The translations under genes and the position numbers were made by a program. The notes beneath the pieces are model-generated. The model ran no database searches, was not told where the DNA came from, and saw only the letters and a list, made by a program, of their open reading frames with translations. A stretch of 42,682 nt of DNA from Myxococcota bacterium (GTDB taxonomy: Bacteria; Myxococcota; XYA12-FULL-58-9), in the NCBI GenBank assembly GCA_022703175.1, contig JAKLEG010000003.1:1-42682 (forward strand), given 5' to 3'. Shown here one piece after another: positions 3,004 to 36,898 of this stretch (positions are counted from its first letter, which is position 1; each line of letters opens with the position of its first letter).

Positions 3004-3057
3004 CCCCCTTGACCCACAATCCAGCCTCGCAGACTCTGCCGGCACTGAGGTGTGGGG

Positions 3058-3669
3058 ATGAACAGCTTTACAACGTTCTGGAATGCGCTGCCGCCTGTGG
3101 CCCAGGGGTTCTTCACCGGCGCAGTGTTCTTCTCCGTGCTGTTTGGCTGGCAGCTTTTAGCCTCGGTGTTGGGGTTGGGCGGCGACGAAGGCCACGGACA
3201 CGCCGACGTCGGGCATGACGCGACCTCTGGCGATGGTCACCACGGCCACGATGGCACAGCGGCCTTCAAGCTGCTGACGCTGCGCTCGATGCTGGCCTTT
3301 GCCACCCTCTTCACCTGGGCGGGCGGCCTTTATCAGAGCACCGGCACCTCCGTCGGGTTGTCGGTTTTTTATGCGAGTCTCTGGGGTTTTTTGGCGCTGA
3401 TTGTGGTGTCGATGCTTGTGCACTTGGTGCCCCGACTCACGCAAAGCAGCAACATGGACCTGCGCTCGGCGTTGGACTGCGAAGGCAACGTCTACCTGGA
3501 TATCCCGGAAAACGGCCAAGGCGAAGTGCGCGTGTTGGTGAGTGGTGCCCAGACGCACGTGAAGGCGCTCGGGCGCGATGGTGTTGCGATCAAGGCCGGC
3601 ACCCCTGTGCGGGTGCATCGCATCGTGGACGAGAACGTGATCGAAGTAGAACCGATTCATCCCGCATAA
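3058..3669 (+). CDS. NfeD-like short membrane protein (YqiJ/YuaF type; flotillin-associated, C-terminal OB-fold)
   Basis: ATG at 3058 with GAGG 7 nt upstream. The ORF-track start at 3052 is a GTG two codons earlier. Two N-terminal TM segments, a His/Gly/Asp-rich loop, a third TM segment, then a C-terminal soluble domain (GEVRVLVSGAQTHVKALGRDGVAIKAGTPVRVHRIVDENVIEVEP) typical of the NfeD OB-fold. Lies 18 nt upstream of a flotillin gene, the conserved nfeD-flotillin arrangement. Confidence 0.6.
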   Translation: MNSFTTFWNALPPVAQGFFTGAVFFSVLFGWQLLASVLGLGGDEGHGHADVGHDATSGDGHHGHDGTAAFKLLTLRSMLAFATLFTWAGGLYQSTGTSVGLSVFYASLWGFLALIVVSMLVHLVPRLTQSSNMDLRSALDCEGNVYLDIPENGQGEVRVLVSGAQTHVKALGRDGVAIKAGTPVRVHRIVDENVIEVEPIHPA

Positions 3670-3687
3670 CTTACGAAGGAGCTTGCC

Positions 3688-5262
3688 ATGTTAAATGCTG
3701 CGTCGTTCACCGCGCAACTGCTGCTTGCGCAAACGTTGGTGTTACCCGTTGGCATGCCCCCGGTGCCGCTTATCCTGAGCGGTATTGTTGGCGTCATCGG
3801 TTTCATGTTGCTCGTGTCGTTGTTGCGCCGCTATCGCCGCTGCCCGTCCAATAAGATCTTGGTCATCTACGGCAAAACCAACTCCGGCGCCTCCAAGTGC
3901 ATCCATGGCGGTGCGGCGCTCGTCTGGCCGCTCATCCAGGACTACGCCTACCTCGATTTGGAGCCGTTCGTAATTCCGATCGATCTGTCGAGCGCGCTGT
4001 CGCAAGAAAACATCCGCGTCACCGTACCCACCTCAGTGACCGCTGCGATTTCGAACAAACCCGGCATTATGCAGAACGCCGCGGTGCGCTTGCTGGGGTT
4101 GTCGTCGCAGCAGATCAAAACCCAAGCGCAGGACATCATCATCGGCCAGATGCGCGCCGTCATCGCGACGATGAAAATCGAAGACATCAACCGCGATCGC
4201 CAAAGTTTCATGGCCAAGGTAAATGAGGCCGTAGCGGTGGAGTTGGAAAAGATTGGCCTGGCCGTCATCAACGTGAACATCCGCGATATTGAAGACGAAT
4301 CTGGTTACATCAAGGCCATTGGGCGCAAGGCCGCGGCCGAGGCCATTTTCCAAGCCAACGTTGACGTGGCCGAACAAGAAAAGCGCGGACAGATGGGTGT
4401 GGCTGAGCGCCAACGCGACCAACGCATCTCGGTGGCTGCCGCCATGGCCGACGCGCAAATTGGTGAGGCCGAGGCAGAGAAAAAACGCCGCACCTCGAGG
4501 GCCGCCGCCGCCGCTGATGCCGAAATTGGCGAAGCGCTGGCCGCCAAGAGCAAGCGCCAAGAAACCGCCAAATTGGATGCCGACGCCGTCTCCACCGAGT
4601 CCAACGCCAATGCCCAAAAGGCGAGCTACTGGGCCACGCAGCGCGTCGCCGAAGAAGAAGCCCGACGCAAAGCCGAATCGGCCGCCAAAGAGGCCGACGG
4701 TAATATTCGCGCCGCCCAAGAGTTGTCACAAAAGAAGGCCGAAGAGGCCCGCGCCCAACGCGAAGGCGCCCGCCTAAACGCCGAAGTGGTCGTCCCGGCC
4801 GAGGCCGACAAGCGCCGCATGGTGATCGCGGCCGAAGCCGAGCGCGACCAGGCCATCTTGCACGCGCAAGGCCAAGCGGAGGCGACCCTGGCCAATGCCA
4901 CGGCCCAAGCCAAAGGCACGCAGGCGCTGTTGGACGGCAAGGCAGAAGGCTACCGCAACTTGGTGCAGGCGGCCGGAGACGCTAACTTGGCCACGGCCTT
5001 GCTGTTGGTCGAAAAGCTTGTGGATGTAGCCGGCATTCAAGCCAAGGCCATTGAGAACTTGCCGATCGAGAAGGTGATTGTCTGGGACGGAGGCGGCGAT
5101 CAGGGTGGGTTGAATGGCCTGGGAAAACGGCTGATGGGGACGCTGCCGCCGATGCATGATCTGGCCAAACAAGTAGGCTTGGAGCTGCCCGAGTTCCTAG
5201 GTCGCGTGAATGCACCGCTGGCAGGCGATAACGCCAAACCGAACGCAACGAAGAAAGCCTAA
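3688..5262 (+). CDS. Flotillin-family SPFH/band-7 protein (FloT/YqiK-like) with long Ala/Glu-rich coiled coil
   Basis: AAGGAG 6 nt upstream of ATG 3688. N-terminal TM hairpin, SPFH core (ILVIYGKTNSGASKCIHGGAALVWPLIQDY...IRDIEDESGYIKAIGRKAAAEA), then about 250 aa of EA/AEAE/QA heptad-like repeats, then a conserved flotillin C-terminus. Confidence 0.8.
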   Translation: MLNAASFTAQLLLAQTLVLPVGMPPVPLILSGIVGVIGFMLLVSLLRRYRRCPSNKILVIYGKTNSGASKCIHGGAALVWPLIQDYAYLDLEPFVIPIDLSSALSQENIRVTVPTSVTAAISNKPGIMQNAAVRLLGLSSQQIKTQAQDIIIGQMRAVIATMKIEDINRDRQSFMAKVNEAVAVELEKIGLAVINVNIRDIEDESGYIKAIGRKAAAEAIFQANVDVAEQEKRGQMGVAERQRDQRISVAAAMADAQIGEAEAEKKRRTSRAAAAADAEIGEALAAKSKRQETAKLDADAVSTESNANAQKASYWATQRVAEEEARRKAESAAKEADGNIRAAQELSQKKAEEARAQREGARLNAEVVVPAEADKRRMVIAAEAERDQAILHAQGQAEATLANATAQAKGTQALLDGKAEGYRNLVQAAGDANLATALLLVEKLVDVAGIQAKAIENLPIEKVIVWDGGGDQGGLNGLGKRLMGTLPPMHDLAKQVGLELPEFLGRVNAPLAGDNAKPNATKKA

Positions 5263-5301: not shown

Positions 5302-5526
5302 CTACTTCGCCCCACGCCGGTAATCACGCACCGCTCGCAAAACAGCCCGGGTCGCGGCTCCAGAGCCTACGACAAGCCCGAACCAAAACAGCCAGGGCGC
5401 AGTATCAAACCGAGAATCGAGATAGCGCCCCCCTAACGAGCCCATAGCCACTGCGGCAGCCATCTCGATGCCCAAGGCAGAGTAGCGTCCCGCGAGGCGC
5501 CACATACGGTCGCGATCGTCAGACAT
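5302..5526 (-). CDS. AtpZ/AtpI-like small membrane protein (putative F0F1-ATPase-associated subunit family), orphan
   Basis: 74 aa: MSDDRDRMWRLAGRYSALGIEMAAAVAMGSLGGRYLDSRFDTAPWLFWFGLVVGSGAATRAVLRAVRDY. This matches the W+y/lag...G.e.a.....G...G..LD..f.t.Pwf family signature. No SD. Not located next to an atp operon. Confidence 0.4.
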   Translation of the reverse strand: MSDDRDRMWRLAGRYSALGIEMAAAVAMGSLGGRYLDSRFDTAPWLFWFGLVVGSGAATRAVLRAVRDYRRGAK

Positions 5527-5539
5527 CGGTCAGGTCACG

Positions 5540-5558
5540 AAAAGTGCATTAAGTGCAC
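5540..5558 (-). terminator. Candidate terminator hairpin downstream of the NHL-repeat operon (minus-strand sense)
   Basis: On the minus strand: GTGCA-cttaa-TGCAC followed by TTTT. A second GC-rich hairpin (CTTCCC...GGGAAG) lies at about 5572-5598. Low confidence; the stem is short. Confidence 0.25.
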
Positions 5559-5637
5559 AGCATGCAGGGCGCTTCCCCCCAAAGGAGGGAAGCAACCCGT
5601 GCCACCGTAATATAGGAAGGAGCAACGCGCCGCGTGA

Positions 5638-8388
5638 CTAGCGCTTGCGACGCAACAACAGGCCGACGCCAACGACCAAGAGCGCACCCCACTCACCACC
5701 GTGGGTCGCCTGGCAACCATCACTGGCGGCAAGCACAGTCCGTGGCTTGCGCGGACGCCCCACCTCGGGAACCATCTCACGCCGCGTAATCACAAAGTTC
5801 ACCGTAGCGGTGGTGGTCACCGTGCGAGCCCCTGTCACCGTCGCAATCAGGTTCGCGTGCACCGTGGTCCCCACGAGCGCATCCACGGGTGCCGTGTAAG
5901 AAACACTGTCGCCAACCAGCGTCACACCATCGGGCGTGGGCACGGCCAAAGCGGCCGTACCAGTATCCACGGCAAAGCTGATGCTCGCAGTGCCGCCCGG
6001 AGCGACTTCAAGGGTGGCGCCGTCTGCGAACGTGAAGACCGGTGCCGCCGTGTCGACATAGCGCAACACACGGGTGTTCCCGGCATCTGCCACCAGCAGC
6101 GTCTGACCATTGCGAGACACACTCAATCCGCGGGGCGCAGAGACAGTACCAGCGTTGATGCCGTTCAATGAGTTGTTAGCGTCAGTGGCGTTGTAGTTGA
6201 CCTGGCCCAACACCAAGTCAGCACCCGCTAGTTGAACCGTGGGGTCCTTTTCCTTCGGGTTATGGAACACCAAAATACGGGAGTCATCGACATCGCTCAC
6301 CCACAAGGTGCCGGCGTTGTCCACCGCGATGCCACCGATGTTTGCGAAACCATACCGGGTGGCGCTCACCGCATCGGCCCACTTATCGGTGGCCGTAAAG
6401 TCGGGTTGACCCACAACACCATCGGCGGTGGTTGCCGAGATCAAATCGGAGGCTTCCGGTTGCTCGAACCACAAGACACGATTGTTGCCGGCGTCGGCGA
6501 CCCAAAGCGTGCCGTCACTGTCCAAGGCCAAACCCACGACGCGAGACAAGGTGTCGGCGCGCGCGATCCCCATGCCACGGTTGGGTGAGTTATCGATATC
6601 GTCGACCACCGGGTTGTCGGAGACCGACATCGGCTGGCCGAAGACGCGGGTTGGCTTGACGCGCGGCGTGGCCACATCCCACACCAGGATACGATTACCG
6701 GACGCCACGTAGAGCCGATTGGTGCTAACGACAATGGCATCCAAGTTGCCGTACAGGCCCGCAGAAGTACCATTGGCCAGCGCGCCGTAGATGCGCGTTG
6801 CCACCGGACGGTTGGCGGCGATCGTGCCTTCAAACGCCAGAATCCGCGTGTTGCCGTTATCTGTGACAAACAGCGCCCCGGTGGGCGAATAGGCGGCGGC
6901 GCGGGGACTGCTCAGGCTGCCCGGCCCAAGCACCGGCGGCATCACGCCCAGCTCCCAGTAATCCACAGCGCTGGACTGGCCGACGATGAAGCTCGGATCT
7001 CCGCCCGTAACAAGGGACGCCAAATTGTCGAACAGCAACACCCGATGCGCATTGCCATCCACCACCGCGCCGCGCGAGCCGTCGTCGTTCACCGCGACAC
7101 CTGTCGGAGCGGCGAAACTGCCTGGTTCGAGGCGATTGGCGTAGGCATGCATCATGTCGGGTTGACCAATGACCGTGGTGGCCAGCTTTGCCGAGCTATT
7201 GAAGCGCAGCACACGGTGATTGCCGCTGTCTACGAGCCAGAAGAACTTGTCGTCGTTGTCGAAGTCGATGTACGTCGGCGTATCCAACCCCTGTTCCGAG
7301 ACGATGCCGGGGTTGGTTGGGTGATAATTCGGAATCGGCGACGTGCTAACGGACTCTTGGCCAAAAACGTAGGGCGTAGGCGACGTTGTCGCTGGCGTCC
7401 GATTGGGCGTAGCGGCCGAATTGGCAATCGTAGCGTTGGCGTGCGCCTCGGTCCCTTCCCAACGGAACACCCGGTGGGATAAGGCGTCGACGATCAACAG
7501 CTGGCCCGCATCGTTGCCAACCATGCTGGTGATGCCCGCAAAGTCGTTGTAGGCCTTGTACGGCACTGGCGGACCATTGGCGATCGGCTCGCGGGCCGGA
7601 AGCCCCGTGTTGGCGTCCACCGAGTAGACGAACACGGCGCTGCAGCCGGTGGTGACACCGTCGTCGCAGGTCACATCGCTGCTGCCGCTGGTGCACGAGA
7701 CAAACAAAATGCTGCCGATCCGGGCGACATCGGTGATGTAGTCGCCGCAACCAGGGCTCACGGTCGATTGGGCATACGGTTCGCGCATCCCCTGATCATA
7801 AAAAACCACCGAGGACGCACCCACGACGGCGATCTTCTTGCCCGGCAGCGCACGCACCGAAACGATGTCGTCTGGCAGGCCCAAGAGATCGTAGTCAGCC
7901 GTACGGTCGTTGCTGGCCGCCGCCGGATCTTCGAACACCAACACGTGCGTGCCGTCGTGCACGTAGACCCGTTGCTCGGCATCCACCGCGACACCTACCG
8001 GCGCGATCTGCTCCCGCGTGGGGATGTTGCGATGATCGGTGGTGAACAGATCCTCTTGCAGCAACACGATATCAGCCGACGCGCCCATCGCCGAGGCCGA
8101 GATCGCCCCGGTGTCGCGCCAACCAAGCACGCGCCGATTACCGGTGTCGGCCACCCACAAAGTGGTTGCACCACTTGCGACAGCGACACTGCCGAGCGCG
8201 CCAAAACCGCCGCCATCGGTGCGCGTGGTCCCGCGACCGCGCTCACTGGCTTGGCCGATGATGGCATCGGCCGCCGCCCCATTACTAAGAGCACTTTGCT
8301 TGGCCGATTGTGGTAACAGCGCGGCGCCTTCTTGGCCGCACGCCACAAGCCACGGCAGCACAGACAATGCGAAAAGTTGGTGACGCAT
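5638..8388 (-). CDS. NHL-repeat beta-propeller lipoprotein with C-terminal MYXO-CTERM sorting signal
   Basis: Start moved to ATG 8388 (MRHQLFALSVLPWLVACGQ; lipobox LVAC) with GGAG 8 nt upstream. Repeated NHL signatures: TGNRRVLGW, SGNHRVLRF, NGNTRILAF, SGNRILVWD, AGNNRVLWF, AGNTRVLRY. C-terminus DGCQATHGGEWGALLVVGVGLLLRRKR matches MYXO-CTERM (GC motif, hydrophobic helix, RRKR). Only 5 nt downstream of the preceding gene. Confidence 0.75.
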   Translation of the reverse strand: MRHQLFALSVLPWLVACGQEGAALLPQSAKQSALSNGAAADAIIGQASERGRGTTRTDGGGFGALGSVAVASGATTLWVADTGNRRVLGWRDTGAISASAMGASADIVLLQEDLFTTDHRNIPTREQIAPVGVAVDAEQRVYVHDGTHVLVFEDPAAASNDRTADYDLLGLPDDIVSVRALPGKKIAVVGASSVVFYDQGMREPYAQSTVSPGCGDYITDVARIGSILFVSCTSGSSDVTCDDGVTTGCSAVFVYSVDANTGLPAREPIANGPPVPYKAYNDFAGITSMVGNDAGQLLIVDALSHRVFRWEGTEAHANATIANSAATPNRTPATTSPTPYVFGQESVSTSPIPNYHPTNPGIVSEQGLDTPTYIDFDNDDKFFWLVDSGNHRVLRFNSSAKLATTVIGQPDMMHAYANRLEPGSFAAPTGVAVNDDGSRGAVVDGNAHRVLLFDNLASLVTGGDPSFIVGQSSAVDYWELGVMPPVLGPGSLSSPRAAAYSPTGALFVTDNGNTRILAFEGTIAANRPVATRIYGALANGTSAGLYGNLDAIVVSTNRLYVASGNRILVWDVATPRVKPTRVFGQPMSVSDNPVVDDIDNSPNRGMGIARADTLSRVVGLALDSDGTLWVADAGNNRVLWFEQPEASDLISATTADGVVGQPDFTATDKWADAVSATRYGFANIGGIAVDNAGTLWVSDVDDSRILVFHNPKEKDPTVQLAGADLVLGQVNYNATDANNSLNGINAGTVSAPRGLSVSRNGQTLLVADAGNTRVLRYVDTAAPVFTFADGATLEVAPGGTASISFAVDTGTAALAVPTPDGVTLVGDSVSYTAPVDALVGTTVHANLIATVTGARTVTTTATVNFVITRREMVPEVGRPRKPRTVLAASDGCQATHGGEWGALLVVGVGLLLRRKR

Positions 8389-8393
8389 TGGGA

Positions 8394-10193
8394 TTACTCC
8401 TTTTCCATGTTGACGAACGGGCTTGTGCACTGCGGATCCCGCGTCGGATAGGCCGGGTTGGGAGCGCCAGTAGGCAAGAACTCGGCCTGGAAGTCGATAA
8501 AGCCATCGCCATCGTTATCCACGCCGTCATTGCACTGCGCAGGTTTACTCTCGTCGCGGCGGCGCATACCGTCAATCGCGCTGGGCTCACCCGTCGTACA
8601 GGCACGATCGGGGAGCATGTCTCCCGCATCGGTGAAGACGCCGTTCTTGTTGAGGTCGATACCGGCCCAATCGGCGGTACCATCGCCGTCGTTATCAACA
8701 CCGTCGGCGCATTGCGGCTTCACGCTTTCGTCGTAACCCGCGGCCGACAAGCAACCTGGATCTGGCGGCATTTCGCCGGGCTGGTCGAACAGGCCGTCGA
8801 AGTTCAGATCGATGCCGGCGTAGTCAGCGCGACCGTCGCCATCGTTATCGGCGCCATCGTTGCATACCGGATCCAGTCGCTCCCACACATAACCTGCGCC
8901 ACACGCGGGATCGGCGGCGGACACACCCGTCACACCACTGTCAATCTTGCCGTCGCCATCGTTATCGACACCATCAGCGCAGTCGCCAGTGCTCGTGCCC
9001 TCGCTGCCTTCGGTGTCATCGGTGTAGCTCGAACAGCCCGGATCCAACGGATAGTCGATGAAACCATCGCCGTCGTTATCGAGGTTGTCGGCACAAGCGC
9101 TGTTGCTGTTTTCGCTACCTTCGAAATAGAGGCAATCCGGATCCTCCGGGTAGTCGATCAGACCGTCATTGTCGTTGTCGAGGCCATCGGCGCAGGTGGA
9201 CGATTCGTTGCCGTCTTCGGATGAAGAGCAACCCAAGTCGCCGGGGAAGTCGACCGTGCCGTCTTGATCGTTGTCCAGGCCATCGCTGCAGGCTGGTTGC
9301 GACTCACTGCTGTCCCACACGCTGGCGCAACCGAGGTCGTCGGGATAATCAATGCGGCCATCGCCGTCGTTGTCACGCCCGTCCGAGCAGGCGGGGTTCG
9401 CTTCATCGTCGTCGAAACGGCTCACACAGCCCGGATCGGCTGGGTAGTCGGCCACGCCATCGAAGTCGTTGTCGACGCCATCATTACAGGCATAGGCCCA
9501 CTCGCGGTCTTGCAGCGCTGACGAGCAGTCGGTGTCTTCCGGGAAGTCCACTTTGCCGTCGCCATCGTTGTCGATCTTGTCCCAACATTGCGGGTTGTTC
9601 TCGGTGTTGTCGCGGCGTGAGCTGCAACCGACATCGGCTGGGTAGTCCACCGCGCCATCGCCGTCGTTGTCCCGACCATCGCTGCAGGCGGGGTCGTTGG
9701 ACTCGCTTGGGTTCGAGCGCACCCAGTTGCCAGCGTTGTCCTGACACGCCGGATCTTGGGCGTCGGCCAAGCCATCACCATCGTTGTCCTTACCATCGGA
9801 GCACTCGGGGTTGGCCTCATCGTTGTCGAGCGTGCCCGGCGAATAATTGCCGTTTTGATCTTGGCAACCCGGGTCGGCGGCATCCGTTAGGCCATCACCA
9901 TCGTTATCTTTGTGGTCAGCACACGCTGGGTCATCGCCTTCTTTGACGCCTTGGTAATTCACCTGGCAGGCAGGATTGGTGGGCGCAAGCCCCGCCGAGG
10001 CTTGGCCGCAGTTACCATACATGGCGTAGTAACGATCGTTCCACGAGGCACACGCCGGGTCGTTGGCATCCAATAAGCCATCGCCATCGTTGTCGATACC
10101 GTCTGTGCACTCGTCGCGTAAGCCGTCACAGGCTGCGAGGGCGGTGATGCCGAGAGACAAAAATCCAATAAAAATGAGCCTTTTCATCATCAT
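8394..10193 (-). CDS. Secreted lipoprotein made of 14 tandem Cys-framed DNDGDG calcium-binding repeats (thrombospondin-type-3-like / MopE-like motif)
   Basis: MMMKRLIFIGFLSLGITALAAC (lipobox LAAC), then 14 copies of C-x-DG-x-DNDGDG-x-x-D-[YF]-P-x-D-x-G-C. Examples: CSDGRDNDGDGAVDYPADVGC, CADGVDNDGDGKID, CNDGVDNDGDGFIDF. 12-nt gap to the upstream gene, 5-nt gap to the downstream gene. Confidence 0.7.
   Translation of the reverse strand: MMMKRLIFIGFLSLGITALAACDGLRDECTDGIDNDGDGLLDANDPACASWNDRYYAMYGNCGQASAGLAPTNPACQVNYQGVKEGDDPACADHKDNDGDGLTDAADPGCQDQNGNYSPGTLDNDEANPECSDGKDNDGDGLADAQDPACQDNAGNWVRSNPSESNDPACSDGRDNDGDGAVDYPADVGCSSRRDNTENNPQCWDKIDNDGDGKVDFPEDTDCSSALQDREWAYACNDGVDNDFDGVADYPADPGCVSRFDDDEANPACSDGRDNDGDGRIDYPDDLGCASVWDSSESQPACSDGLDNDQDGTVDFPGDLGCSSSEDGNESSTCADGLDNDNDGLIDYPEDPDCLYFEGSENSNSACADNLDNDGDGFIDYPLDPGCSSYTDDTEGSEGTSTGDCADGVDNDGDGKIDSGVTGVSAADPACGAGYVWERLDPVCNDGADNDGDGRADYAGIDLNFDGLFDQPGEMPPDPGCLSAAGYDESVKPQCADGVDNDGDGTADWAGIDLNKNGVFTDAGDMLPDRACTTGEPSAIDGMRRRDESKPAQCNDGVDNDGDGFIDFQAEFLPTGAPNPAYPTRDPQCTSPFVNMEKE
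8516..10106 (-). repeat. Coding tandem-repeat array: 14 copies of the DNDGDG Ca-binding module, each about 35-45 codons
   Basis: Counted DND(G/F/Q/N)DG occurrences in the 599-aa translation: 14, each flanked by Cys. Confidence 0.65.
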
Positions 10194-10205
10194 GTTGGCC
10201 CTCGA

Positions 10206-10805
10206 TTAAAGGTAGATGTGGAAGCCCAACGTCCCGGTGCCGGTAACGTTGAGGCCGGCGCTGGTGGCGCCAATGACAAAGGCCGAGCCGGCGTTGTAGG
10301 TGTAGCTTGCCGTAAGGCCATAGCCTCCCATCAGGCTGATGTTCGGGAACCCGAACGCGCCCAGGAACAACTCGGCGCCCAAGAAACCGGTTCCCGACAG
10401 GTCGTGACGGGCCGGCACCGAGTCCTCACCGAAAGAATCTAAAAATCGGTAGGCCAGCCCCAAACGCGCAAACACCACCGAGTAATGGTAGTGGCCCAGC
10501 GCCATCACGTAGCCCAACTCCAGGCCGTAACGCTGCGCTTCCAGGTTGCCCGAGGACAACGCGAAATCGGCGTTAAGATCCAACGCGGTATCGCGGTCCA
10601 TCCAATAGCGGACGCCCAACGGCGCCGTATTGGTAAAATAGCCCAGGCCATAGTGCCCAACCACACCATCAATCGGGCTTAACGCCTTGGCGCCACCCTC
10701 GGCCGCCTCGCCTGCTTTGGCGGAGTCGGTCGATGATTGGGCGTACGCGGGGCTTGCGAGTGTGCTTGCCAGCACCAGGAAACACCAGGTCGCTCTTCTC
10801 AACAT
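10206..10805 (-). CDS. Small outer-membrane beta-barrel-like protein (OmpA-like / OMP_b-brl type) with signal peptide
   Basis: MLRRATWCFLVLASTLASPAYA|QSS signal peptide. The rest is rich in Gly/Tyr/aromatic residues with alternating hydrophobic dyads (LGYVMALGHYHYSVVFARLGLAYRF...GTLGFHIYL), consistent with 8-10 amphipathic beta strands. 199 aa. Confidence 0.45.
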   Translation of the reverse strand: MLRRATWCFLVLASTLASPAYAQSSTDSAKAGEAAEGGAKALSPIDGVVGHYGLGYFTNTAPLGVRYWMDRDTALDLNADFALSSGNLEAQRYGLELGYVMALGHYHYSVVFARLGLAYRFLDSFGEDSVPARHDLSGTGFLGAELFLGAFGFPNISLMGGYGLTASYTYNAGSAFVIGATSAGLNVTGTGTLGFHIYL

Positions 10806-10834
10806 GTCAATGTTGTCCTTTCAGACTGCTTACA

Positions 10835-12028
10835 TCAATCAAGTTCACCACAGTCGATGGCCGTGACCTTCTCGACTTGGCAACAACTCGGGCGGGCGGC
10901 TTTGCCGTCCTTCTTCTCTTGCTCCAGAAGAATTTCTTCCATCGCGCAGGGATACTCGGGGAAGGCTTTGGGCTTCTTCACGCCGACAATCACCTTGAGC
11001 GTACGGCCTGAGCCCGTGGGGGAGTCCTCCCAGCCGCCAGGAATCGCGATCTTGCGCACGACGTGGCCCTTGAACTCCTTGGTGTACAACTGCCGCACCA
11101 GCTTCTTGAGCGGCGCCGGCCCCGCAAGCTCCGGAAAATGCACCGCCGCCAACTCGGCGTTCTGGCTGTCGGTGCAGATCTTTTCGAAGTAGGCGAGCTT
11201 GAAGCGGCCCACCGTAGCGAGCTTGATGTTGTATTCAAGCGCATCTTCGGCCGTCTCGCGCAGACTCTGAAAGGCGGCGCGACATTGCGGCAAATCAACG
11301 TCGCTGAACACGGTGGCTTCAGCGGTGGGTGCCGCCTTGGCAAACGCCCGACGCAAAGCACGAATCGCCGCAGCCCCGCGCTGCAACGTCTCAACTCGAT
11401 CCATCGCCTGTTCCATCGGAATGCGCCACGGCTCGACGGACGCCTTCAACGCGTCGTCGGTGGTCATCTTCTCGTACAATGACATCAAGGGCGCCGAGTC
11501 ATCGAAATCATCCAAGTAGATGCGCTCGGCCGCGCGCGTCGCCTGGCCGTAGAAATCCTTCTCGGCGGTGGTGGCCTTGGCTGGCAGCGCTGGAACCTCG
11601 ATCCGCAACGACGCCAAGGTCTCTTTGGGAGGCTCCAACTTAACCGGCTCCGTCTTGGGCTTGGGCTCAGGCTCCGGTTTGGTGACCCTGGTCGGCTCCG
11701 TCTTGGGTTCGGCCACAGACTCAACCTTGGGCTCAGGTTTCGGTTCGGGCTTGGGCTCGGCCTTGACCACTGGCGCAGGCTTGGTGGAAGGCGTTCCAGC
11801 CGGACGCGACGTTGAGGTCGCGGCTTGCTTCGCGTCAGCCTGCTGCCAAACCAAGGTCACGGGCGGAAAGCCAGCGGCCTGACCGGGCGCAGGCGGCGGC
11901 GCCGGCGCGGCAACATTCGAGGGCAGTTGGATGATGGAGCGCAAGTCACCTTGTTGGGTAGCGCACGCCCAGAGTGCCCCCCCAAGACCGACGCTCAACG
12001 CAAATGTTTGGAGTCCCCGCCTAGCCAC
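10835..12028 (-). CDS. Lipoprotein with long Pro/Glu/Lys-rich (EPKPEPKPEPK) spacer and a C-terminal domain I do not recognise
   Basis: Best start is GTG at 12026-12028, giving MARRGLQTFALSVGLGGALWAC (lipobox LWAC). The ORF track extends to ATG 12082, which adds 18 non-signal-like residues. A spacer of about 55 aa of PEPK/TEP repeats is followed by a roughly 250-aa Cys-containing domain. Confidence 0.5.
   Translation of the reverse strand: MARRGLQTFALSVGLGGALWACATQQGDLRSIIQLPSNVAAPAPPPAPGQAAGFPPVTLVWQQADAKQAATSTSRPAGTPSTKPAPVVKAEPKPEPKPEPKVESVAEPKTEPTRVTKPEPEPKPKTEPVKLEPPKETLASLRIEVPALPAKATTAEKDFYGQATRAAERIYLDDFDDSAPLMSLYEKMTTDDALKASVEPWRIPMEQAMDRVETLQRGAAAIRALRRAFAKAAPTAEATVFSDVDLPQCRAAFQSLRETAEDALEYNIKLATVGRFKLAYFEKICTDSQNAELAAVHFPELAGPAPLKKLVRQLYTKEFKGHVVRKIAIPGGWEDSPTGSGRTLKVIVGVKKPKAFPEYPCAMEEILLEQEKKDGKAARPSCCQVEKVTAIDCGELD
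11578..11746 (-). repeat. Low-complexity coding repeat (EPKPEPKPEPK..., visible as short tandem nucleotide repeats)
   Basis: Read from the translation VVKAEPKPEPKPEPKVESVAEPKTEPTRVTKPEPEPKPKTEPVKLEPPKE. Confidence 0.6.
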
Positions 12029-12154
12029 GTCCGGCAATCTGCTACATCTATGGACCGCTGACAAGGCTTGCCCCCACAACAACTGCGTTACATGCCACGA
12101 CGATCATGACACCGACGGAAGGTCAGCTTGGACACTCCATGCCAAACACGATTG

Positions 12155-12382
12155 CTACTTCTCGCCCGATTTGGCCGGCAACAGGCGCATCAACACGAGC
12201 GTGCTCACCCAGAACAACGACATGAAGACGAAGATCGCGAGCATTGACCAGGCGGAGATTTCGAGCGCGCGCCGGAGCACCACCCCGGTGTCCTGGCCCG
12301 TAGGCAACGCCGACTGCGCTTGGGCCGGAACTGCTGCCAGAACCACGCCAAATGTAAGCCACAGTTTCATCAGAGTTGACAT
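12155..12382 (-). CDS. OadG-family small membrane subunit (gamma/delta-type anchor of Na+-translocating decarboxylases)
   Basis: ATG at 12380-12382 with GGAG 8 nt upstream. The track's longer 12155..12568 form would overlap the beta-subunit gene. 75 aa: signal-like N-terminus (MSTLMKLWLTFGVVLAAVPAQAQS), then a C-terminal TM helix (ISAWSMLAIFVFMSLFWVSTLVLMRLL), as in OadG-family proteins. 23 nt downstream of the beta-subunit gene. Confidence 0.45.
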   Translation of the reverse strand: MSTLMKLWLTFGVVLAAVPAQAQSALPTGQDTGVVLRRALEISAWSMLAIFVFMSLFWVSTLVLMRLLPAKSGEK

Positions 12383-12405
12383 CACGTTGACTCCCGACGT
12401 GCGCG

Positions 12406-13524
12406 CTACGACACCAAAGCCAAAATCAAGCCGCCCGCCACCACCGAGGCGATCTGCCCCCCGACGTTGGCACTCACCGCGTGCATCAGCAGGTGGTTCT
12501 GCTTGTCTTCTTCGAGCCCAAGCTTGTAAACCACCCGCGCCGCCATCGGGAACGCCGAGATGCCGCATGCCCCAATCATTGGGTTGATTTTGTGTTTTAG
12601 GAACAAATTCAGGAGCTTAGCAAACAAGACGCCGCCCACCGTATCAAAAATAAAGGCCACAAGCCCCATGCCTATAATGAGCAGGGTCGAAGACGTCAGG
12701 AAACGCTCGGCCACCATCGTCGAGCCAATGGTGATACCCAAAAGCAATGTCACGATGTTGGCCAACTCGTTTTGCGCCCCCTTGGACAAGCGCTCGACCA
12801 CGCCGGCCTCGCGCAGCAAATTGCCAAACATCAACATGCCGATGAGCGCCGCGGCCGACGGCACAAACAGGCTGGTGACGAGGGTGACCACCAACGGGAA
12901 GGCGATGCGCGTCGCCCGAGATACCGGTTGATACTTGTGGTCCATCCGAATGCGGCGTTCGTGTTTCGTGGTGAGCAACTTGATGACCGGTCGCTGAATG
13001 ATGGGCACAAGAGCCATGTACGAGTAGGCCGCAACCGAAATCGCTCCCAGCAACTCCGGAGCAAAACGTGTGGAGACTACAATGGAGGTCGGCCCGTCGG
13101 CGGCGCCGATGATGCCAATCGATGCGGCTTGTTTGAGTGAGAAACCCGCCAACGCCGCAAAGCACATCGTCGCAAAAATGCCGAACTGCGCGGCGGCCCC
13201 AAACAACAACATCTTGGGGTTTTGCAACAGCGGCGCAAAATCGATCATCGCACCGATGGCCACAAAAATGAGCAACGGAAACAGCTCGGTGATAATGCCG
13301 GCGCGGAACAGAATCGACAAAACCCCGTGCCCCGAGGCCTGATCGATCGCGGCCGAAAACGGGATGTTGACCAAAATGGCGCCAAAGCCAATCGGCAACA
13401 ACAGCGTCGGCTCATACTCCTTGGCGATCGCCAAGTAGATAAGAATGAGGCCCACAAGCACCATCACGCCGTGCTGCCAGGTGAAACCAGAGATGCCGAC
13501 AAACAGTTCGGAGAGCGAGGCCAC
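12406..13524 (-). CDS. Na+-translocating decarboxylase beta subunit (OadB/MmdB/GcdB family integral membrane Na+ pump)
   Basis: GTG start with AAGGAG 7 nt upstream. 372 aa, polytopic. N-terminus MASLSELFVGISGF...LIYLAIAKEYEPTLLLPIGFGAILVNIP carries the family-defining EP(L/T)LLLPIGFG motif. Length and hydropathy fit OadB/MmdB. Confidence 0.75.
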   Translation of the reverse strand: MASLSELFVGISGFTWQHGVMVLVGLILIYLAIAKEYEPTLLLPIGFGAILVNIPFSAAIDQASGHGVLSILFRAGIITELFPLLIFVAIGAMIDFAPLLQNPKMLLFGAAAQFGIFATMCFAALAGFSLKQAASIGIIGAADGPTSIVVSTRFAPELLGAISVAAYSYMALVPIIQRPVIKLLTTKHERRIRMDHKYQPVSRATRIAFPLVVTLVTSLFVPSAAALIGMLMFGNLLREAGVVERLSKGAQNELANIVTLLLGITIGSTMVAERFLTSSTLLIIGMGLVAFIFDTVGGVLFAKLLNLFLKHKINPMIGACGISAFPMAARVVYKLGLEEDKQNHLLMHAVSANVGGQIASVVAGGLILALVS

Positions 13525-13635
13525 GACGGGGCTCCTTGATAAAACCAGGTCGAGCCGTTAGGCTCGCGCGGACTTTACCGGCAGGCCGTGCAAGCTGCAA
13601 GCACACCCCCCAAACCTGCAGGCGTAAAGTCATAC

Positions 13636-13652
13636 CGACATCGTCGACATCG
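13636..13652. promoter_or_regulatory. Tandem direct repeat CGACATCG-T-CGACATCG (contains a SalI-like GTCGAC core) in the divergent promoter region, about 27 nt upstream of the carboxyltransferase start
   Basis: Seen directly in the 154-bp intergenic region between the beta-subunit gene (minus) and the alpha-subunit gene (plus). Candidate operator for coordinated control of both operons. Confidence 0.25.
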
Positions 13653-13678
13653 GTCGCGATGCGTGAAGGAGTTCCAGC

Positions 13679-15241
13679 ATGCCTGAGGCCAAGGCGGATG
13701 CCCCCAAAACCGCCCTCGACGAATTGCGGCGCCGCAAGAAGGCCGCTCGCTTAGGCGGTGGTGAAGCGCGACTACAAAAGCATCGCGCCCAGGGCAAGCT
13801 CACCGCGCGCGAACGGGTCGACTTGCTGCTCGACCGCGATAGCTTCCAAGAGCAACATCTGTTTGCTCGGCATCGCTGCACCTTCTTCGATATGGCCGAC
13901 AAGGAGTTGGCAGCCGACGGTGTCATCACGGGTACCGGCACCATCGATGGGCGAGTGGTCCAGGTGGCCAGCCAGGATTTCACGGTGGCGGGCGGCGCGG
14001 CGGGCGAGACCCACTGCAACAAAATCGTCGAAATGATGAAAGCCTCGATGAAGACTGGGAATCCGTTTGTCTTCATCAACGACTCAGGGGGCGCACGTGT
14101 CCAAGAGGGCGTCGATTCATTGTCGGGCTACGGTCGGGTGTTTCATGCCAACGTGATGCTGTCGGGCGTGGTGCCGCAGATCGCGGTGATTTGTGGGCCG
14201 TGCGCCGGCGGCGCCGCCTACAGTCCGGCGCTGACTGACTTCATCATTCAAACCAAACAAGCGCTGATGTTCATCACCGGGCCGCAGGTCATCAAAGAGG
14301 TCACGGGCGAAGAGATCAGCGCCGAGGCGTTGGGCGGGCCCGACGCACATATGCAAAAGAGCGGAGTCGTGCACTTTGTCGCCGACGACGACAGCGATGC
14401 GATGCGTATCTGCAAACGGCTGTTGAGCTTTTTGCCCGCCAACAACCGCGAAGATCCGCCGCACTTTCCGGCCGAGGACGCGATTGCGTACGACGACAGC
14501 CTGAATACCCTGATCCCTGACAACCCCCGCAAGCCGTACGACATGCTCACCGTGATTCACAGAGTCGTGGATCGCGGCGACTTTATGGAGGTGCAAGAGG
14601 GCTTCGCAAAGAACATCATCGTAGGCTTTGGCCGAGTGCTCGGGCGCACGGTGGGTGTGATTGCCAACCAGCCCAACGTCTCGGCGGGCGTTTTGGACAT
14701 CGACGCCTCTGACAAAGCGGCGCGCTTCATTCGCTTCTGCAACGCCTTCAACGTACCGCTGCTGAACTTTGTAGACGTGCCTGGCTTTTTGCCCGGCATC
14801 AAACAGGAATATGGCGGCATCATTCGCCACGGCGCCAAAATGCTCTTCGCCTACTCGGCCGCGACCGTGCCAAAGGTCACTGTGGTGGTACGCAAAGCCT
14901 ATGGGGGCGCCTACTTAGCGATGTGCAGCAAAGACCTAGGCGCCGATCGCGTGGTGGCCTGGCCGTCGGCGGAAATTGCGGTGATGGGAGCCGAAGGCGC
15001 GGTGAGTGTGGTGTTCCGCAAGGAAATAGAACACGCGGAAAACCGCGCGGAAAAACGTCAGGCGATGATCGACTTGTACCGGGAGACCTTCTGTTCGCCG
15101 TACGTCGCGGCCAGCCGGCTGCTCGTAGATGATGTGATTGAACCGGGAGAGACCCGCCAATACGTCGCGTTGGCTCTAGAAGCCTTGGTCACCAAGCGCG
15201 AGCTTAGGCCGCCGAAGAAACATGGCCTGATTCCACTCTAA
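13679..15241 (+). CDS. Carboxyltransferase (12S-type) alpha subunit of a biotin-dependent acyl-CoA decarboxylase. Methylmalonyl-CoA decarboxylase MmdA-like; the propionyl-CoA carboxylase beta chain family is the alternative
   Basis: AAGGAG 7 nt upstream of ATG. 520 aa with both carboxyltransferase halves: ...VVQVASQDFTVAGGAAGETHCNKI...FINDSGGARVQEG...ICGPCAGGAAYSPALTDF..., then GRTVGVIANQP...VVRKAYGGAYLAMCSK...AWPSAEIAVMGAEGAV. Placed divergently from the OadB-like pump subunit. Confidence 0.8.
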   Translation: MPEAKADAPKTALDELRRRKKAARLGGGEARLQKHRAQGKLTARERVDLLLDRDSFQEQHLFARHRCTFFDMADKELAADGVITGTGTIDGRVVQVASQDFTVAGGAAGETHCNKIVEMMKASMKTGNPFVFINDSGGARVQEGVDSLSGYGRVFHANVMLSGVVPQIAVICGPCAGGAAYSPALTDFIIQTKQALMFITGPQVIKEVTGEEISAEALGGPDAHMQKSGVVHFVADDDSDAMRICKRLLSFLPANNREDPPHFPAEDAIAYDDSLNTLIPDNPRKPYDMLTVIHRVVDRGDFMEVQEGFAKNIIVGFGRVLGRTVGVIANQPNVSAGVLDIDASDKAARFIRFCNAFNVPLLNFVDVPGFLPGIKQEYGGIIRHGAKMLFAYSAATVPKVTVVVRKAYGGAYLAMCSKDLGADRVVAWPSAEIAVMGAEGAVSVVFRKEIEHAENRAEKRQAMIDLYRETFCSPYVAASRLLVDDVIEPGETRQYVALALEALVTKRELRPPKKHGLIPL

Positions 15242-15253
15242 AGGAGGCGACCA

Positions 15254-15478
15254 ATGCTGAGCTTTTTGAAGAAACTCGTCGCCGCACCGCCTGAGGCAGC
15301 CCCGGCAGAGTCGCCTGTGGAGCCCTTTTTACTGGTGCTGTTCACCGCCGCCATAGCCGCCGCGGTGCAGCGACCGGTGCGCATCCGCCACATCACGATT
15401 CGACAAGCCTCAGTGGAACACCACCCCTGGTCCGACGGGGGTCGACAATCACTGCACCACTCGCACGGTCGCAACTAA
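15254..15478 (+). CDS. Small subunit of the (de)carboxylase complex (epsilon-like / OadG-like; one hydrophobic helix)
   Basis: Strong AGGAGG 6 nt upstream of ATG 15254, 12 nt after the alpha-subunit stop. 74 aa: MLSFLKKLVAAPPEAAPAESPVEPFLLVLFTAAIAAAVQRPVRIRHITIRQ.... Position between the alpha and biotin-carrier genes mirrors mmdA-D/E-C layouts. Confidence 0.35.
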   Translation: MLSFLKKLVAAPPEAAPAESPVEPFLLVLFTAAIAAAVQRPVRIRHITIRQASVEHHPWSDGGRQSLHHSHGRN

Positions 15479-15495
15479 CGGAGTCGAAAGAGATC

Positions 15496-15897
15496 ATGAA
15501 GGTTAGAATCACGTATCAAGGCACCGCCTACGAGCTCGATGTTGAAATCCTGGAGGCCCACGACCAGCCACATGTCCCCGTGGCCGCAGCAAATGCGCCG
15601 CCGCCCGCAGTTCCAGCCCCGCAAACTGCCGCCAGCCTTGCGCCCACGCCCAAGGTAAGCAAACCAACGACGGGTGACACTTTGGGTCGCACCGTGAATT
15701 CGCCCATGGCGGGGGTGGTGTTGGCCATCAAGGTGAAACCTGGCGACCAAGTGGCTGAAGGCCAAGATGTGGTCACGCTTGAAGCGATGAAGATGGAGAC
15801 CTCCATCGTGTCGCCCTACAGCGGCACCGTGAAGGCGATTCTGGTGGAACCACGCCAAGGCGTGGGCTCCGACGAGCCTTTGATTCAGTTCGAGTAA
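15496..15897 (+). CDS. Biotin carboxyl carrier subunit (biotinyl domain; MmdC/GcdC/OadA-C-terminus type)
   Basis: 133 aa. Ala/Pro-rich linker, then GDQVAEGQDVVTLEAMKMETSIVSPYSGTVKAI with the biotinylation motif E-A-M-K-M. Confidence 0.8.
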   Translation: MKVRITYQGTAYELDVEILEAHDQPHVPVAAANAPPPAVPAPQTAASLAPTPKVSKPTTGDTLGRTVNSPMAGVVLAIKVKPGDQVAEGQDVVTLEAMKMETSIVSPYSGTVKAILVEPRQGVGSDEPLIQFE

Positions 15898-15912
15898 CCA
15901 CATCTCCGCCGG

Positions 15913-15932
15913 CCCTGGCGCTGCCAGGGTTT
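15913..15932. terminator. Candidate bidirectional intrinsic terminator between convergent genes
   Basis: CCCTGGC-gct-GCCAGGG (7-bp stem) followed by TTTG on the plus strand. The minus-strand view places the hairpin after CAAA. Lies between the biotin carrier gene (+) and the DUF4382 lipoprotein gene (-). Confidence 0.35.
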
Positions 15933-15975
15933 GAGCCACTACCCTTTGATGACCATGAGGCTCGTGGCAGAGCAG

Positions 15976-16569
15976 CTACAAGCTCGCCTCTTTACCATCC
16001 ACCTTCACTTTATGCAGCTTGAGCACTGGGCGCAGGCGGTAGCAGTCGCCGCTGGGGATGAGGGATTCGCCCACGTCAAAGTCCATCAAGATCTCGGTCT
16101 CGGCGCCGTCCTTGGCCGCGAAGGCCTTGAATGGATGATTGATCTTGATACCGGTGGGCGGCACGTCGGCCAACTCCAACGCGCACTCTACACCGTCTTG
16201 CACCACCGTGTTGGATTGGCTCAGGTCGAGGAACAACCGCACCTGTGTGATTTTGCCCTCCGGCAACGACAACTCACCTAACAACGCTGCCGCGCCCTCG
16301 CCTTGGTGGGCCAGTAGATCGAGCGCCTTGCCATACGCGAGACTCTCCCAGTTGCGGTCTTGGTCAATCGAAGTATCGGCCGGGTCGCCATCTTTGGCCT
16401 TGTCACCCTCGGCCACGTGCACCTCAATCCGGTCAACAAACACCGTGACGGCGGTGATCCCCTCGGGGGGCGCATCCATCAGCTTGATTACAGCCGTGGC
16501 CTCACCACCGCACCCCGACACCACCAAGGCCAACCCCACCATCCACCCGTGTTGCAGCTTCATCGACAT
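15976..16569 (-). CDS. DUF4382-family lipoprotein
   Basis: MSMKLQHGWMVGLALVVSGC (lipobox VSGC). Domain pattern VTVFVDRIEVHV..W..L.....LDLL.....A.LLGELSLPEGKITQVRLFL...NTVV.DG....L..PSG..TGIKI...F......TEILMDFDVGESLIPSGDCYRLRPVLKL matches what I remember of DUF4382. Confidence 0.45.
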   Translation of the reverse strand: MSMKLQHGWMVGLALVVSGCGGEATAVIKLMDAPPEGITAVTVFVDRIEVHVAEGDKAKDGDPADTSIDQDRNWESLAYGKALDLLAHQGEGAAALLGELSLPEGKITQVRLFLDLSQSNTVVQDGVECALELADVPPTGIKINHPFKAFAAKDGAETEILMDFDVGESLIPSGDCYRLRPVLKLHKVKVDGKEASL

Positions 16570-16595
16570 GGTGTACCTCCACTACCCCACTTGTT

Positions 16596-18113: not shown

Positions 18114-18216
18114 TAAAAACAACACATTAACACAATCCACTTGCGTCACGTCAAACTCGGCCAGACGCCGGTTACGAGACCCACCGAAACCACAATGAAC
18201 CTACAGAGGAGCCAGC
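18114..18216 (+). promoter_or_regulatory. Promoter region of the ECF sigma operon; unusually AT-rich leader (TAATAAAAACAACACATTAACACAAT) and possible ECF-type AAC-N18-CGTC element
   Basis: AT-rich 26-mer at 18114-18140 in an otherwise ~67% GC context. ttAACacaatccacttgcgtcaCGTCaa resembles autoregulated ECF promoters (GGAAC ... CGTC). Assignment is tentative. Confidence 0.2.
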
Positions 18217-18801
18217 GTGCCCGATGAGTTACGTGAAGGTGTCCCCCAAGATGCGTGGGAGCGGGCACAGCTTGCACGCGCGCAAAAGGGAGATGCACAG
18301 GCGTTTGGCGACGTGCTCAAGCGCTACCAAACGCGAATCTACTCACTGGTACGTCGGCTGGTGGCGCGTCCTGCGGAAGCACAGGAGCTGACCCAGGAGG
18401 TCTTCTTGCAGGCGTTCAAGTCCCAGGCGCGTTTCGACCCCAACCGGCCGTTCCGCCCGTGGCTGTACCGCATCGCGGTGAACGTCTGTCAAAATCACCG
18501 TCGGCACGCGAGCCGCCGTGAGCTGGCACAACCACCGCTCGACCACCTAACGCCGCTTTGGGGGGCACTCCCAGCGACGCCCGAACAAGCCGCCGTGCAC
18601 CAAGACGATGCCCAGCGCCTGGAAACCTATCTATTGCGACTCAAACCCAGCGATCGCGAGTTGTTGCTGCTACGCTTCTGGGAGGAGCTCGACTACGCGG
18701 AGCTCGTGCGCATCTACCATCTGCCCCAGACGGTCTTAAAGATGCGCGTGCATCGTGCCCTCAACACGTTGCGCCAATGGGTGGAGGGAGGCCGCTCATG
18801 A
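18217..18801 (+). CDS. RNA polymerase ECF-type sigma-70 family factor
   Basis: GTG start with AGAGGAG 5 nt upstream. Region 2 (QTRIYSLVRRLVARPAEAQELTQEVFLQAFKSQARFDPNRPFRPWLYRIAVNVCQNHRR) and region 4 (DRELLLLRFWEELDYAELVRIYHLPQTVLKMRVHRALNTLR) are both present. 194 aa. Confidence 0.85.
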   Translation: MPDELREGVPQDAWERAQLARAQKGDAQAFGDVLKRYQTRIYSLVRRLVARPAEAQELTQEVFLQAFKSQARFDPNRPFRPWLYRIAVNVCQNHRRHASRRELAQPPLDHLTPLWGALPATPEQAAVHQDDAQRLETYLLRLKPSDRELLLLRFWEELDYAELVRIYHLPQTVLKMRVHRALNTLRQWVEGGRS

Positions 18802-36866: not shown

Positions 36867-36898
36867 CACCGCACCTCTGCGCTAAATATTGCGCGTTT

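Follow-up and report, generated by a model that had tools for sequence, protein, structure and literature searches.

The nearest functional precedent for the genes described here is, by analogy, the TraA/TraB pair of Myxococcus xanthus, in which a MYXO-CTERM receptor carries a 'stalk' of cysteine-rich repeats and is encoded in one operon with an envelope partner (PMC3325183). The MYXO-CTERM tail is tripartite; myxosortase cleaves the proteins that bear it, which are displayed at the cell surface (PMC11980579). A second likeness is to the teneurins; the C-rich domain of teneurin-4 binds three Ca2+ through E835, D840, D843, N844, D845, D847, D851, D854 and D856; two of these sites have thrombospondin type-3 geometry, and a disulfide joins C838 to C857 (PMC9058538). 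The same core motif has been tabulated for teneurins, algal proteins and the MopE motif (PMC3278476). Here, we describe a cluster of four genes, referred to as A to D, within a 42,682-nucleotide (nt) stretch of DNA (the window) from a Myxococcota bacterium of the lineage XYA12-FULL-58-9 (contig JAKLEG010000003.1 of assembly GCA_022703175.1, positions 1 to 42,682). Its conservation extends over a small group of Myxococcota that are uncultured, and it consists of an invariant core, a predicted outer-membrane barrel (B) followed by an acidic repeat lipoprotein (C), and two frequent accessory lipoproteins (A and D).

The resemblance to TraA/TraB comprises a MYXO-CTERM surface protein, a cysteine-rich repeat for which the role of a rigid stalk has been proposed, and an envelope partner from the same operon, the two genes overlapping (PMC3325183; PMC11980579). 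However, the cluster is without a PA14 domain, and its stalk-like repeats are of another repeat family and are carried by a lipoprotein of their own. The partner in this case is an 8-stranded barrel with no OmpA_C domain attached, and D has a lipobox at its N-terminus, in contrast to the type-I signal of TraA. Homology to TraA/TraB was not detected, with no direct test aimed at it. A preliminary description of the window, made from its sequence, had recognized no named system in this combination of genes, and we likewise found none of this composition in Pfam, NCBIfam, PDB sequences or literature searches. Three of the four proteins are of known kinds, namely a small outer-membrane barrel (B, by fold only), an NF033662 repeat protein (C) and an NHL propeller that ends in a MYXO-CTERM-like tail (D); the C-terminal domain of A is an orphan. 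What is new is the conserved pairing of barrel and acidic repeat lipoprotein, with A and D as optional companions, and we regard the whole as a well-supported conserved cluster without an assigned function.

Conservation and layout of the cluster

The four genes, and two hairpins that follow them, are arranged as follows:

10835-12028, minus strand: gene A, a 397-amino acid (aa) lipoprotein
10206-10805, minus strand: gene B, a predicted 199-aa outer-membrane 8-stranded beta-barrel
8394-10193, minus strand: gene C, a 599-aa hyper-acidic repeat lipoprotein
5638-8388, minus strand: gene D, a 916-aa NHL-propeller lipoprotein with a MYXO-CTERM-like tail
5571-5593, minus strand: a 10-bp GC-rich hairpin (GCUUCCCUCC-UUU-GGGGGGAAGC), 45 nt 3' of the D stop codon, from a terminator scan and the sequence
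5558-5544, minus strand: a second hairpin with a U-run, downstream of the first

Homologous loci, numbered here with the prefix L, were drawn from 185,579 species-representative genomes, which gave nine, and from look-ups of individual homologues, which gave four. A metagenome scan added 11 close loci, one of which duplicates L008; this sample is anchored on B, and no stretch of A was conserved enough to anchor a scan. All counts refer to 24 distinct loci from Myxococcota metagenome-assembled genomes (MAGs) and metagenomes, tallied by tblastn with the window proteins and a hidden Markov model (HMM) of the A C-terminal domain. Gene C lies directly after B at all 24. Gene A lies directly before B at 20 of 23 informative loci, the exceptions (L011, L030 and L031) forming one sub-clade, and D directly follows C at 8 of 10 informative loci, the exceptions, in another sub-clade, being L015, where there is 8 kb of room filled by unrelated genes, and probably L013. 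Since B-C is complete and A or D is sometimes absent, the cluster is an invariant B-C core with two frequent accessories, and the four-gene module of the preliminary description holds for B and C and must be relaxed for A and D. Identity to the window proteins is 48-68% for B, 44-61% for C, 29-43% for D and 25-44% for A.

Co-conservation had been set beforehand as the test of the module, and gene order was found to be kept at loci with unrelated flanks. The flanking genes differ by lineage, with OadB/OadG and flotillin genes in the window, a divergent ATP synthase operon at L015 and L018, DUF2339/DUF3999 genes at L016, and a 2-oxoacid dehydrogenase gene elsewhere. It is conceivable that there is no functional unity, and that A to D are independent envelope genes left adjacent through shared ancestry. 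The clade is indeed narrow, with nine species representatives among the 185,579 genomes, all Myxococcota-type MAGs, A and D have each been lost in some lineages, and AtpZ and the atp operon likewise show residual synteny. Nevertheless, the genes keep their order and close spacing even where the proteins are only 25-60% identical and the flanks are entirely different, and the Shine-Dalgarno (SD) site of D inside C, together with overlapping stop and start codons, points to translational coupling. We consider this explanation very unlikely.

The open reading frames (ORFs) run head to tail on the minus strand and span 5638-12082 in the ORF list. Gene calls in metagenomes that hold the identical contig (from an anaerobic digester and other sources) give 199 aa for B, 599 aa for C, 916 aa for D, and either 397 or 369 aa for A. 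For A, we favor the GTG at 12028 over an upstream TTG or the shorter call because it yields a signal peptide ending in LWAC, so keeping the lipobox Cys that stands at the equivalent place in all orthologues and the adjoining GD(L/I)R motif. The start of D is taken as the ATG at 8388, and a longer version from GTG 8430 was discounted. All four products are predicted to be extracytoplasmic, as previously described, with lipoboxes on A, C and D and a type-I signal peptide on B.

The intergenic distances given in the preliminary description (29 nt for A/B, 12 nt for B/C and 5 nt for C/D) are exact. SD-like sites precede B (AAGGA), C (GAGGG) and D (AAGGAG), the last of which sits 8 nt 5' of ATG 8388 and within the 3' end of C. 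Orthologous genes likewise overlap or are separated by gaps of 0-20 nt; at L018, A and B overlap by 4 nt and C and D by 1 nt, and at L016 the C/D gap is 0 nt. A strong terminator-like hairpin is found only after D, the three internal gaps being too short for any such element. The spacer 3' of D (111 nt; fold region 5527-5640) folds at -47.1 kcal/mol with a z-score of -3.35, and its two hairpins together likely form the 3' end of the A-D transcript. Short same-strand gaps, kept order and a lack of internal terminators were therefore all found, and the single transcript proposed earlier agrees with each of them: A to D likely form one tightly coupled transcription unit. A sigma-70 promoter scan found no promoter and is uninformative for this phylum, and an Rfam scan returned nothing credible.

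Some loci that lack an accessory gene carry other genes in its place. At L031 (B at 1957-2679), the gene 5' of B lies on the opposite strand and encodes a membrane protein of 152 aa; before it comes a 438-aa ORF of no recognized family. At L015, the interval 12178-18203 between C and the AtpZ-like gene, where D is missing, holds a 333-aa ORF, a PEGA/LpoB-like protein and, on the opposite strand, a 1235-aa RCC1-repeat propeller.

Barrel B and repeat lipoprotein C

The type-I signal peptide of B ends in AYA, with Q as the next residue. A variable acidic and Ala-rich segment follows, leading to an invariant SPIDGVVGH immediately before strand 1, and the protein terminates in a beta-signal, GFHIYL, that reads GFHIY followed by L, W or F in orthologues. 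An AlphaFold2 model built from a 20-sequence alignment has a predicted local distance difference test score (pLDDT) of 78.7, rising to about 90 in the core, and contains about eight long strands. The barrel-like body with a cleavable signal noted earlier is thus modeled as an 8-stranded barrel, and with the antiparallel fold, signal peptide and C-terminal beta-signal all present, B is predicted to be an 8-stranded OmpA/OprF-like outer-membrane barrel.

Sequence searches place B at the edge of known families. No Pfam family at E ≤ 0.01, no NCBIfam entry and no PDB sequence match was found for it; PF13505 (OMP_b-brl) does not match B itself, and only remote profile relatives score. A profile search of 1.84 billion representatives returned 11 clusters below 1e-30, followed by generic small barrels, some of which match PF13505. 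The family has 53 close members; all that carry a name are labelled "hypothetical", and in the few cases where an organism is given, the source is a Myxococcota MAG. Comparison with known 8-stranded barrels (the OmpA and OprF N-domains, NspA, OmpW and OprH; Pfam PF13505) sets B apart by the SPIDGVVGH pre-barrel motif and by HYHY and GFPN motifs, and in contrast to OmpA it is without the periplasmic OmpA_C domain. B is also the most conserved of the four proteins, with more than 40 invariant columns, which is unusual for a small barrel and would fit contacts with a partner.

Distant homologues of B (E ~1e-30) occupy unrelated gene contexts. For example, a distant B-family barrel at L021/L022 (8001-8705; 32% identity) lies directly 3' of a BatA/BatB-like DUF58-VWA-VWA operon, which suggests that the barrel family may partner other envelope modules as well.

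The preliminary description offered B as an "anchor or portal". An anchor is in keeping with eight strands; a portal was rejected on barrel size. This bears on the portal idea in a fuller form, in which B, with A, would be an export device moving the lipoproteins C and D to the surface. Cargo-like C and D are encoded 3' of the barrel gene, as such a device might have it. However, B is of the OmpX and OmpA class and too small, as protein-conducting barrels such as Slam, TpsB and the autotransporters are far larger than an 8-stranded barrel. Moreover, D has its own MYXO-CTERM-type sorting signal, and Myxococcus uses myxosortase together with the type II secretion system for such proteins (PMC11980579). 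We therefore give export through B almost no credence.

C has a lipobox, LAAC (by inspection, with an equivalent Cys in orthologues), and is extremely acidic, with 20% Asp and a net charge of -115. The claim of 14 DNDGDG repeats was borne out, a regular expression counting exactly 14 DND.DG units. The unit reads C-x-D-G-x-D-N-D-G-D-G-x-x-D...C, with two Cys per unit, which are spaced 19-20 residues apart in 10 of the 14 repeats. The NCBIfam model NF033662 (acidic double-disulfide repeat) matches C over 14 stretches with 233.3 bits against a cut-off of 41 (E 8.6e-71), and there was no match to Pfam even at E 10, including PF11617, TSP_3 (PF02412) and the MopE motif. NF033662 is a repeat definition without an assigned function, the family description available does not include a pairing with a barrel, and no paper was found for the double-disulfide repeat term. 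The cluster would give this family a first genomic context and a testable partner, barrel B. Tandem Repeats Finder detects no tandem repeat in the DNA, indicating that, as DNA, the repeats of C are old.

Among solved structures, the best sequence match to C is the 49-residue teneurin-4 C-rich domain (7plp_A, E 1.2e-3), with calmodulin loops next. The first seven teneurin Ca2+-ligand positions are occupied by D, E or N in C, on average 6.5 of 7 per repeat. Given this close motif identity with a crystallographically defined Ca2+-binding domain, the "Ca2+-loaded repeats" of the preliminary description seem well founded: each repeat is predicted to be a disulfide-closed loop of the Ca2+-binding type, and C probably binds roughly two or more ions per repeat. 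Across the cluster family, C has 10-15 loops of this teneurin C-rich or thrombospondin type-3 kind. Repeats 12 and 13 (residues 444-553) carry extra DxNxDG-type loops, GIDLNFDGLFD and GIDLNKNGVFTD, which lengthen the Cys-Cys spacing to 37 residues; the loops are possible further Ca2+ sites of EF-hand or dockerin-like type.

The parallel with teneurins extends beyond a single motif. The core of the C repeat, CxDxxDNDGDGxxDxxDPxC, is nearly identical to that of teneurins and keeps the spacing of C838-C857, in teneurins the C-rich domain (PDB 7PLP) is followed by an NHL propeller, and D matches TEN_NHL at E 7e-10. However, the teneurin C-rich domain is single, with six Cys in three disulfides, whereas C has 14 tandem units with two Cys each; the repeats and the NHL propeller are here on separate lipoproteins; and no TTR, FN-plug, YD-shell or toxin domains are found in the cluster. 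Nevertheless, a repeat core close to the teneurin Ca2+ domain, encoded beside an NHL gene, adds a small, concrete observation to the proposal that parts of the teneurin ectodomain are of bacterial descent.

The accessory lipoproteins A and D

Downstream of its lipobox (LWAC, with Cys22 following the signal peptide and an equivalent Cys in orthologues, by inspection), A is composed of a short N-terminal motif, a linker and a C-terminal domain. The motif occupies residues 23-63 and reads GDLRxxIxL, a P-rich segment and FPPVTLVW; in orthologues the first ~40 residues of the mature protein read GD(L/I)RxN(I/V)xL, PEPSRP and FPxVTL(L/I)W. The remainder is divided as follows:

11621-11839, minus strand: low-complexity PEPK linker, residues 64-136
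10838-11620, minus strand: orphan C-domain, residues 137-397, conserved across orthologues

In orthologues, the C-domain of ~260 residues has four invariant Cys and a near-invariant Cys within a usually doubled CC pair. The linker ranges from ~22 to 145 aa and also differs in composition, being PEPK-rich only in the window and close relatives and consisting of an acidic Ser/Gly/Leu-rich repeat at L019. The rigid Pro-rich rod proposed in the preliminary description is consequently a lineage-specific form, and the conserved feature of A appears to be a tether, not a PEPK rod. No relatives of A were found in Pfam, NCBIfam or the PDB. A word-based search with full-length A was swamped by PEPK low complexity (8000 candidates, 2 matches), one with the C-domain alone recovered itself and one relative, and homologues were therefore drawn from syntenic loci by tblastn and hmmsearch. 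The AlphaFold2 model of A has a pLDDT of 72.9 and a predicted TM-score (pTM) of 0.48, and its fold matches are generic only. The C-domain joins those envelope protein domains that are worth solving.

The (E/K)P-rich stretch of ~70 aa in the window protein resembles the rod of TonB. However, A has a lipobox in place of the N-terminal transmembrane helix, its orthologues exchange the spacer for unrelated low-complexity sequence of 22-145 aa, it contains no TonB_C domain (no Pfam or NCBIfam TonB match), and genes for ExbB/ExbD are not adjacent to the cluster. TonB homology was ruled out on the missing TonB_C domain and the unconserved spacer.

A different comparison is with RcsF of the Enterobacteria, a lipoprotein that combines a disordered linker with a small disulfide-bonded domain and is paired with an outer-membrane barrel (OmpA, OmpC or OmpF). 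A has a similar layout, in which the lipobox is followed by a short conserved N-segment, then by a disordered linker and last by a small alpha/beta domain stapled by disulfides, and its gene lies directly 5' of a barrel gene, overlapping it by 4 nt at L018. The unusual conservation of B, including the invariant pre-barrel motif, is also what would be expected if the N-segment and linker of A passed through or along the barrel. In such an interlock, A would span the outer membrane, and would act as an envelope sensor reporting on the surface components C and D or as a connector between these and the periplasm. However, the resemblance is architectural only, with no sequence or fold similarity of A to RcsF; A is absent 5' of B at L011, L030 and L031; an 8-stranded barrel has a narrow lumen; and the length of the linker is unconstrained. 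We judge an A-B interlock to be improbable.

D has the lipobox LVAC (by inspection; orthologues also have an N-terminal lipobox). Its NHL propeller, as claimed previously, is supported by PF01436 with 92 bits against a cut-off of 20, and TEN_NHL scores 38.8 bits. By eye there are ~9-10 DxGNxRVLxF-like blades, followed by a segment that looks beta-rich or immunoglobulin-like. The best PDB sequence matches are the PknD-derived 'Pizza' propellers, PknD and the TRIM71 NHL domain, at E values down to 2e-18. The tail, encoded at nt 5641-5724 (GCQATHGGEWGALLVVGVGLLLRRKR), consists of GCQATHGG, a transmembrane helix and RRKR. All full-length orthologues end likewise, with GCGC, GCEC, GCLC, GCQSC or GCVC, a hydrophobic stretch and RRRR. 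The MYXO-CTERM assignment of the preliminary description therefore holds in so far as the tripartite tail is present and conserved, but the TIGR03901 (MYXO-CTERM) HMM gives D 18.2 bits, below its cut-off of 20; among orthologues, L008 scores 18.2 bits and four others have no match at E ≤ 0.01. No CPBP protease was seen within the 42.7-kb window, and a search of the literature on MYXO-CTERM combined with NHL found nothing.

Possible function and genomic surroundings

The cluster is most likely an envelope module that is co-transcribed and specific to one clade of uncultured Myxococcota, with translation of C coupled to that of B. None of its features runs counter to expectation, and any function is deduced from the kinds of proteins encoded. 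Our preference, which is tentative, is that A to D make up a Ca2+-dependent, outer-membrane-anchored surface structure for adhesion or recognition, with a ligand-binding propeller head. B would be the membrane anchor or the docking site; the unusual degree to which it is conserved, and its invariant pre-barrel motif, are in line with binding of a partner. C, carrying tens of Ca2+, would form a stiff and highly charged stalk, or else a mat or layer, held at the outer membrane through its lipid and through B. D, exported to the surface by the MYXO-CTERM route, would provide the ligand-binding head, and A, on the periplasmic side, would tether or organize the whole. Should A to D indeed assemble, the result would be a new surface structure from a little-known branch of the Myxococcota that is uncultured; the biology of this phylum centers on cell-surface recognition, adhesion and predation.

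Several points weigh against a surface structure of this kind. Some lineages do without A and others without D, so that a stalk with a head is not the universal form, and the MYXO-CTERM scores of D and its orthologues fall under the cut-off. The model of A is of low confidence and gives no functional clue. Physical association of the proteins, Ca2+ binding, localization and an adhesive role are all inferred. Furthermore, the C lipoproteins of L016 and L017 have Lys at position +2, which in M. xanthus is an inner-membrane retention signal and fits a periplasmic location better, and the thrombospondin-type repeats of bacterial OmpA-family proteins are periplasmic.

The last two points lead to a different arrangement, in which the cluster is a structural module of the periplasm and outer membrane. 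C would be an inner-leaflet outer-membrane lipoprotein with its Ca2+ repeats in the periplasm, and B and C would correspond to a split version of OmpA-family proteins, which fuse an 8-stranded barrel to thrombospondin type-3 repeats. Together with the tethered domain of A, they would serve to stabilize the envelope, to set its spacing or to buffer divalent cations, and D, as an add-on, would have a role of its own at the surface. That B and C are the sole invariant pair, with A and D dispensable, agrees with this, as do the type-3 Ca2+ motif of the C repeats, the Lys at +2 in two C orthologues and a conserved neighbor, the 'Ca2+/Mg2+ transporter-like' AtpZ of family PF09527. However, no OmpA_C or other peptidoglycan-binding domain was found in the four proteins (Pfam, NCBIfam), and wherever D is present it is tightly coupled to C, by a gap of 0-5 nt or a 1-nt overlap, and has a tail of the surface-sorting type. 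We regard the periplasmic module as possible but doubtful.

A more elaborate form of the surface structure that we tentatively prefer is a trans-outer-membrane organelle, in which A would be interlocked with B in the manner of RcsF and its barrels, and B would nucleate a Ca2+-crystallized stalk of C that presents D. This seems to us a long shot. Were it true, the organelle would be a Ca2+-gated device for adhesion or recognition, and its stalk-head chemistry would be a prokaryotic counterpart, possibly the source, of the C-rich and NHL region of teneurins.

Outside the cluster, one neighboring gene recurs at other loci:

5302-5526, minus strand: PF09527 (ATPase_gene1/AtpZ-like) 74-aa membrane protein, Pfam E 5.9e-15

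This gene lies 111 nt 3' of D in the window, 20-76 nt 3' of D at L016, L017 and L018, and ~0.8 kb away at L010; at L015 it is ~6 kb away, and at L008 there is none near D. The ATP synthase operon at L015 and L018 diverges from A. The PF09527 gene may be a loosely attached fifth member, or may reflect residual synteny only. The family label, 'putative Ca2+/Mg2+ transporter', is suggestive beside the Ca2+-repeat protein C.

The segment 12155-15241 holds, directly 5' of A and on the same strand, OAD_beta, an oxaloacetate-decarboxylase-type beta subunit (Pfam match on the identical L001 gene), and a small OadG-like ORF that has no Pfam match. A 520-aa ORF divergent from these genes looks, by eye, like a carboxyltransferase of the propionyl-CoA carboxylase beta type. 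OadB and OadG were ruled out as cluster members, being adjacent in this lineage only.

Three further ORFs of the window have no Pfam match at E ≤ 0.001: 38399-41878 (plus strand, 1159 aa), 16596-18113 (plus strand, 505 aa) and 18558-19937 (plus strand, 459 aa). Two flotillin/Band-7 and NfeD-type pairs also occur within these 42 kb, one at 3052-5262 on the plus strand (a 524-aa Band_7 protein and a small upstream membrane protein) and the other at 35874-38425 on the minus strand (FloA with NfeD1b). An RCC1-repeat protein of 1189 aa is encoded 8 kb from the cluster at 20102-23671 (minus strand). Finally, the segment 27295-34231 (minus strand) resembles a type IV pilus tip or minor-pilin cluster, and contains proteins with N-terminal methylation motifs, a pseudopilin resembling GspH and, in a protein of 1578 aa, a PilY1 propeller domain.

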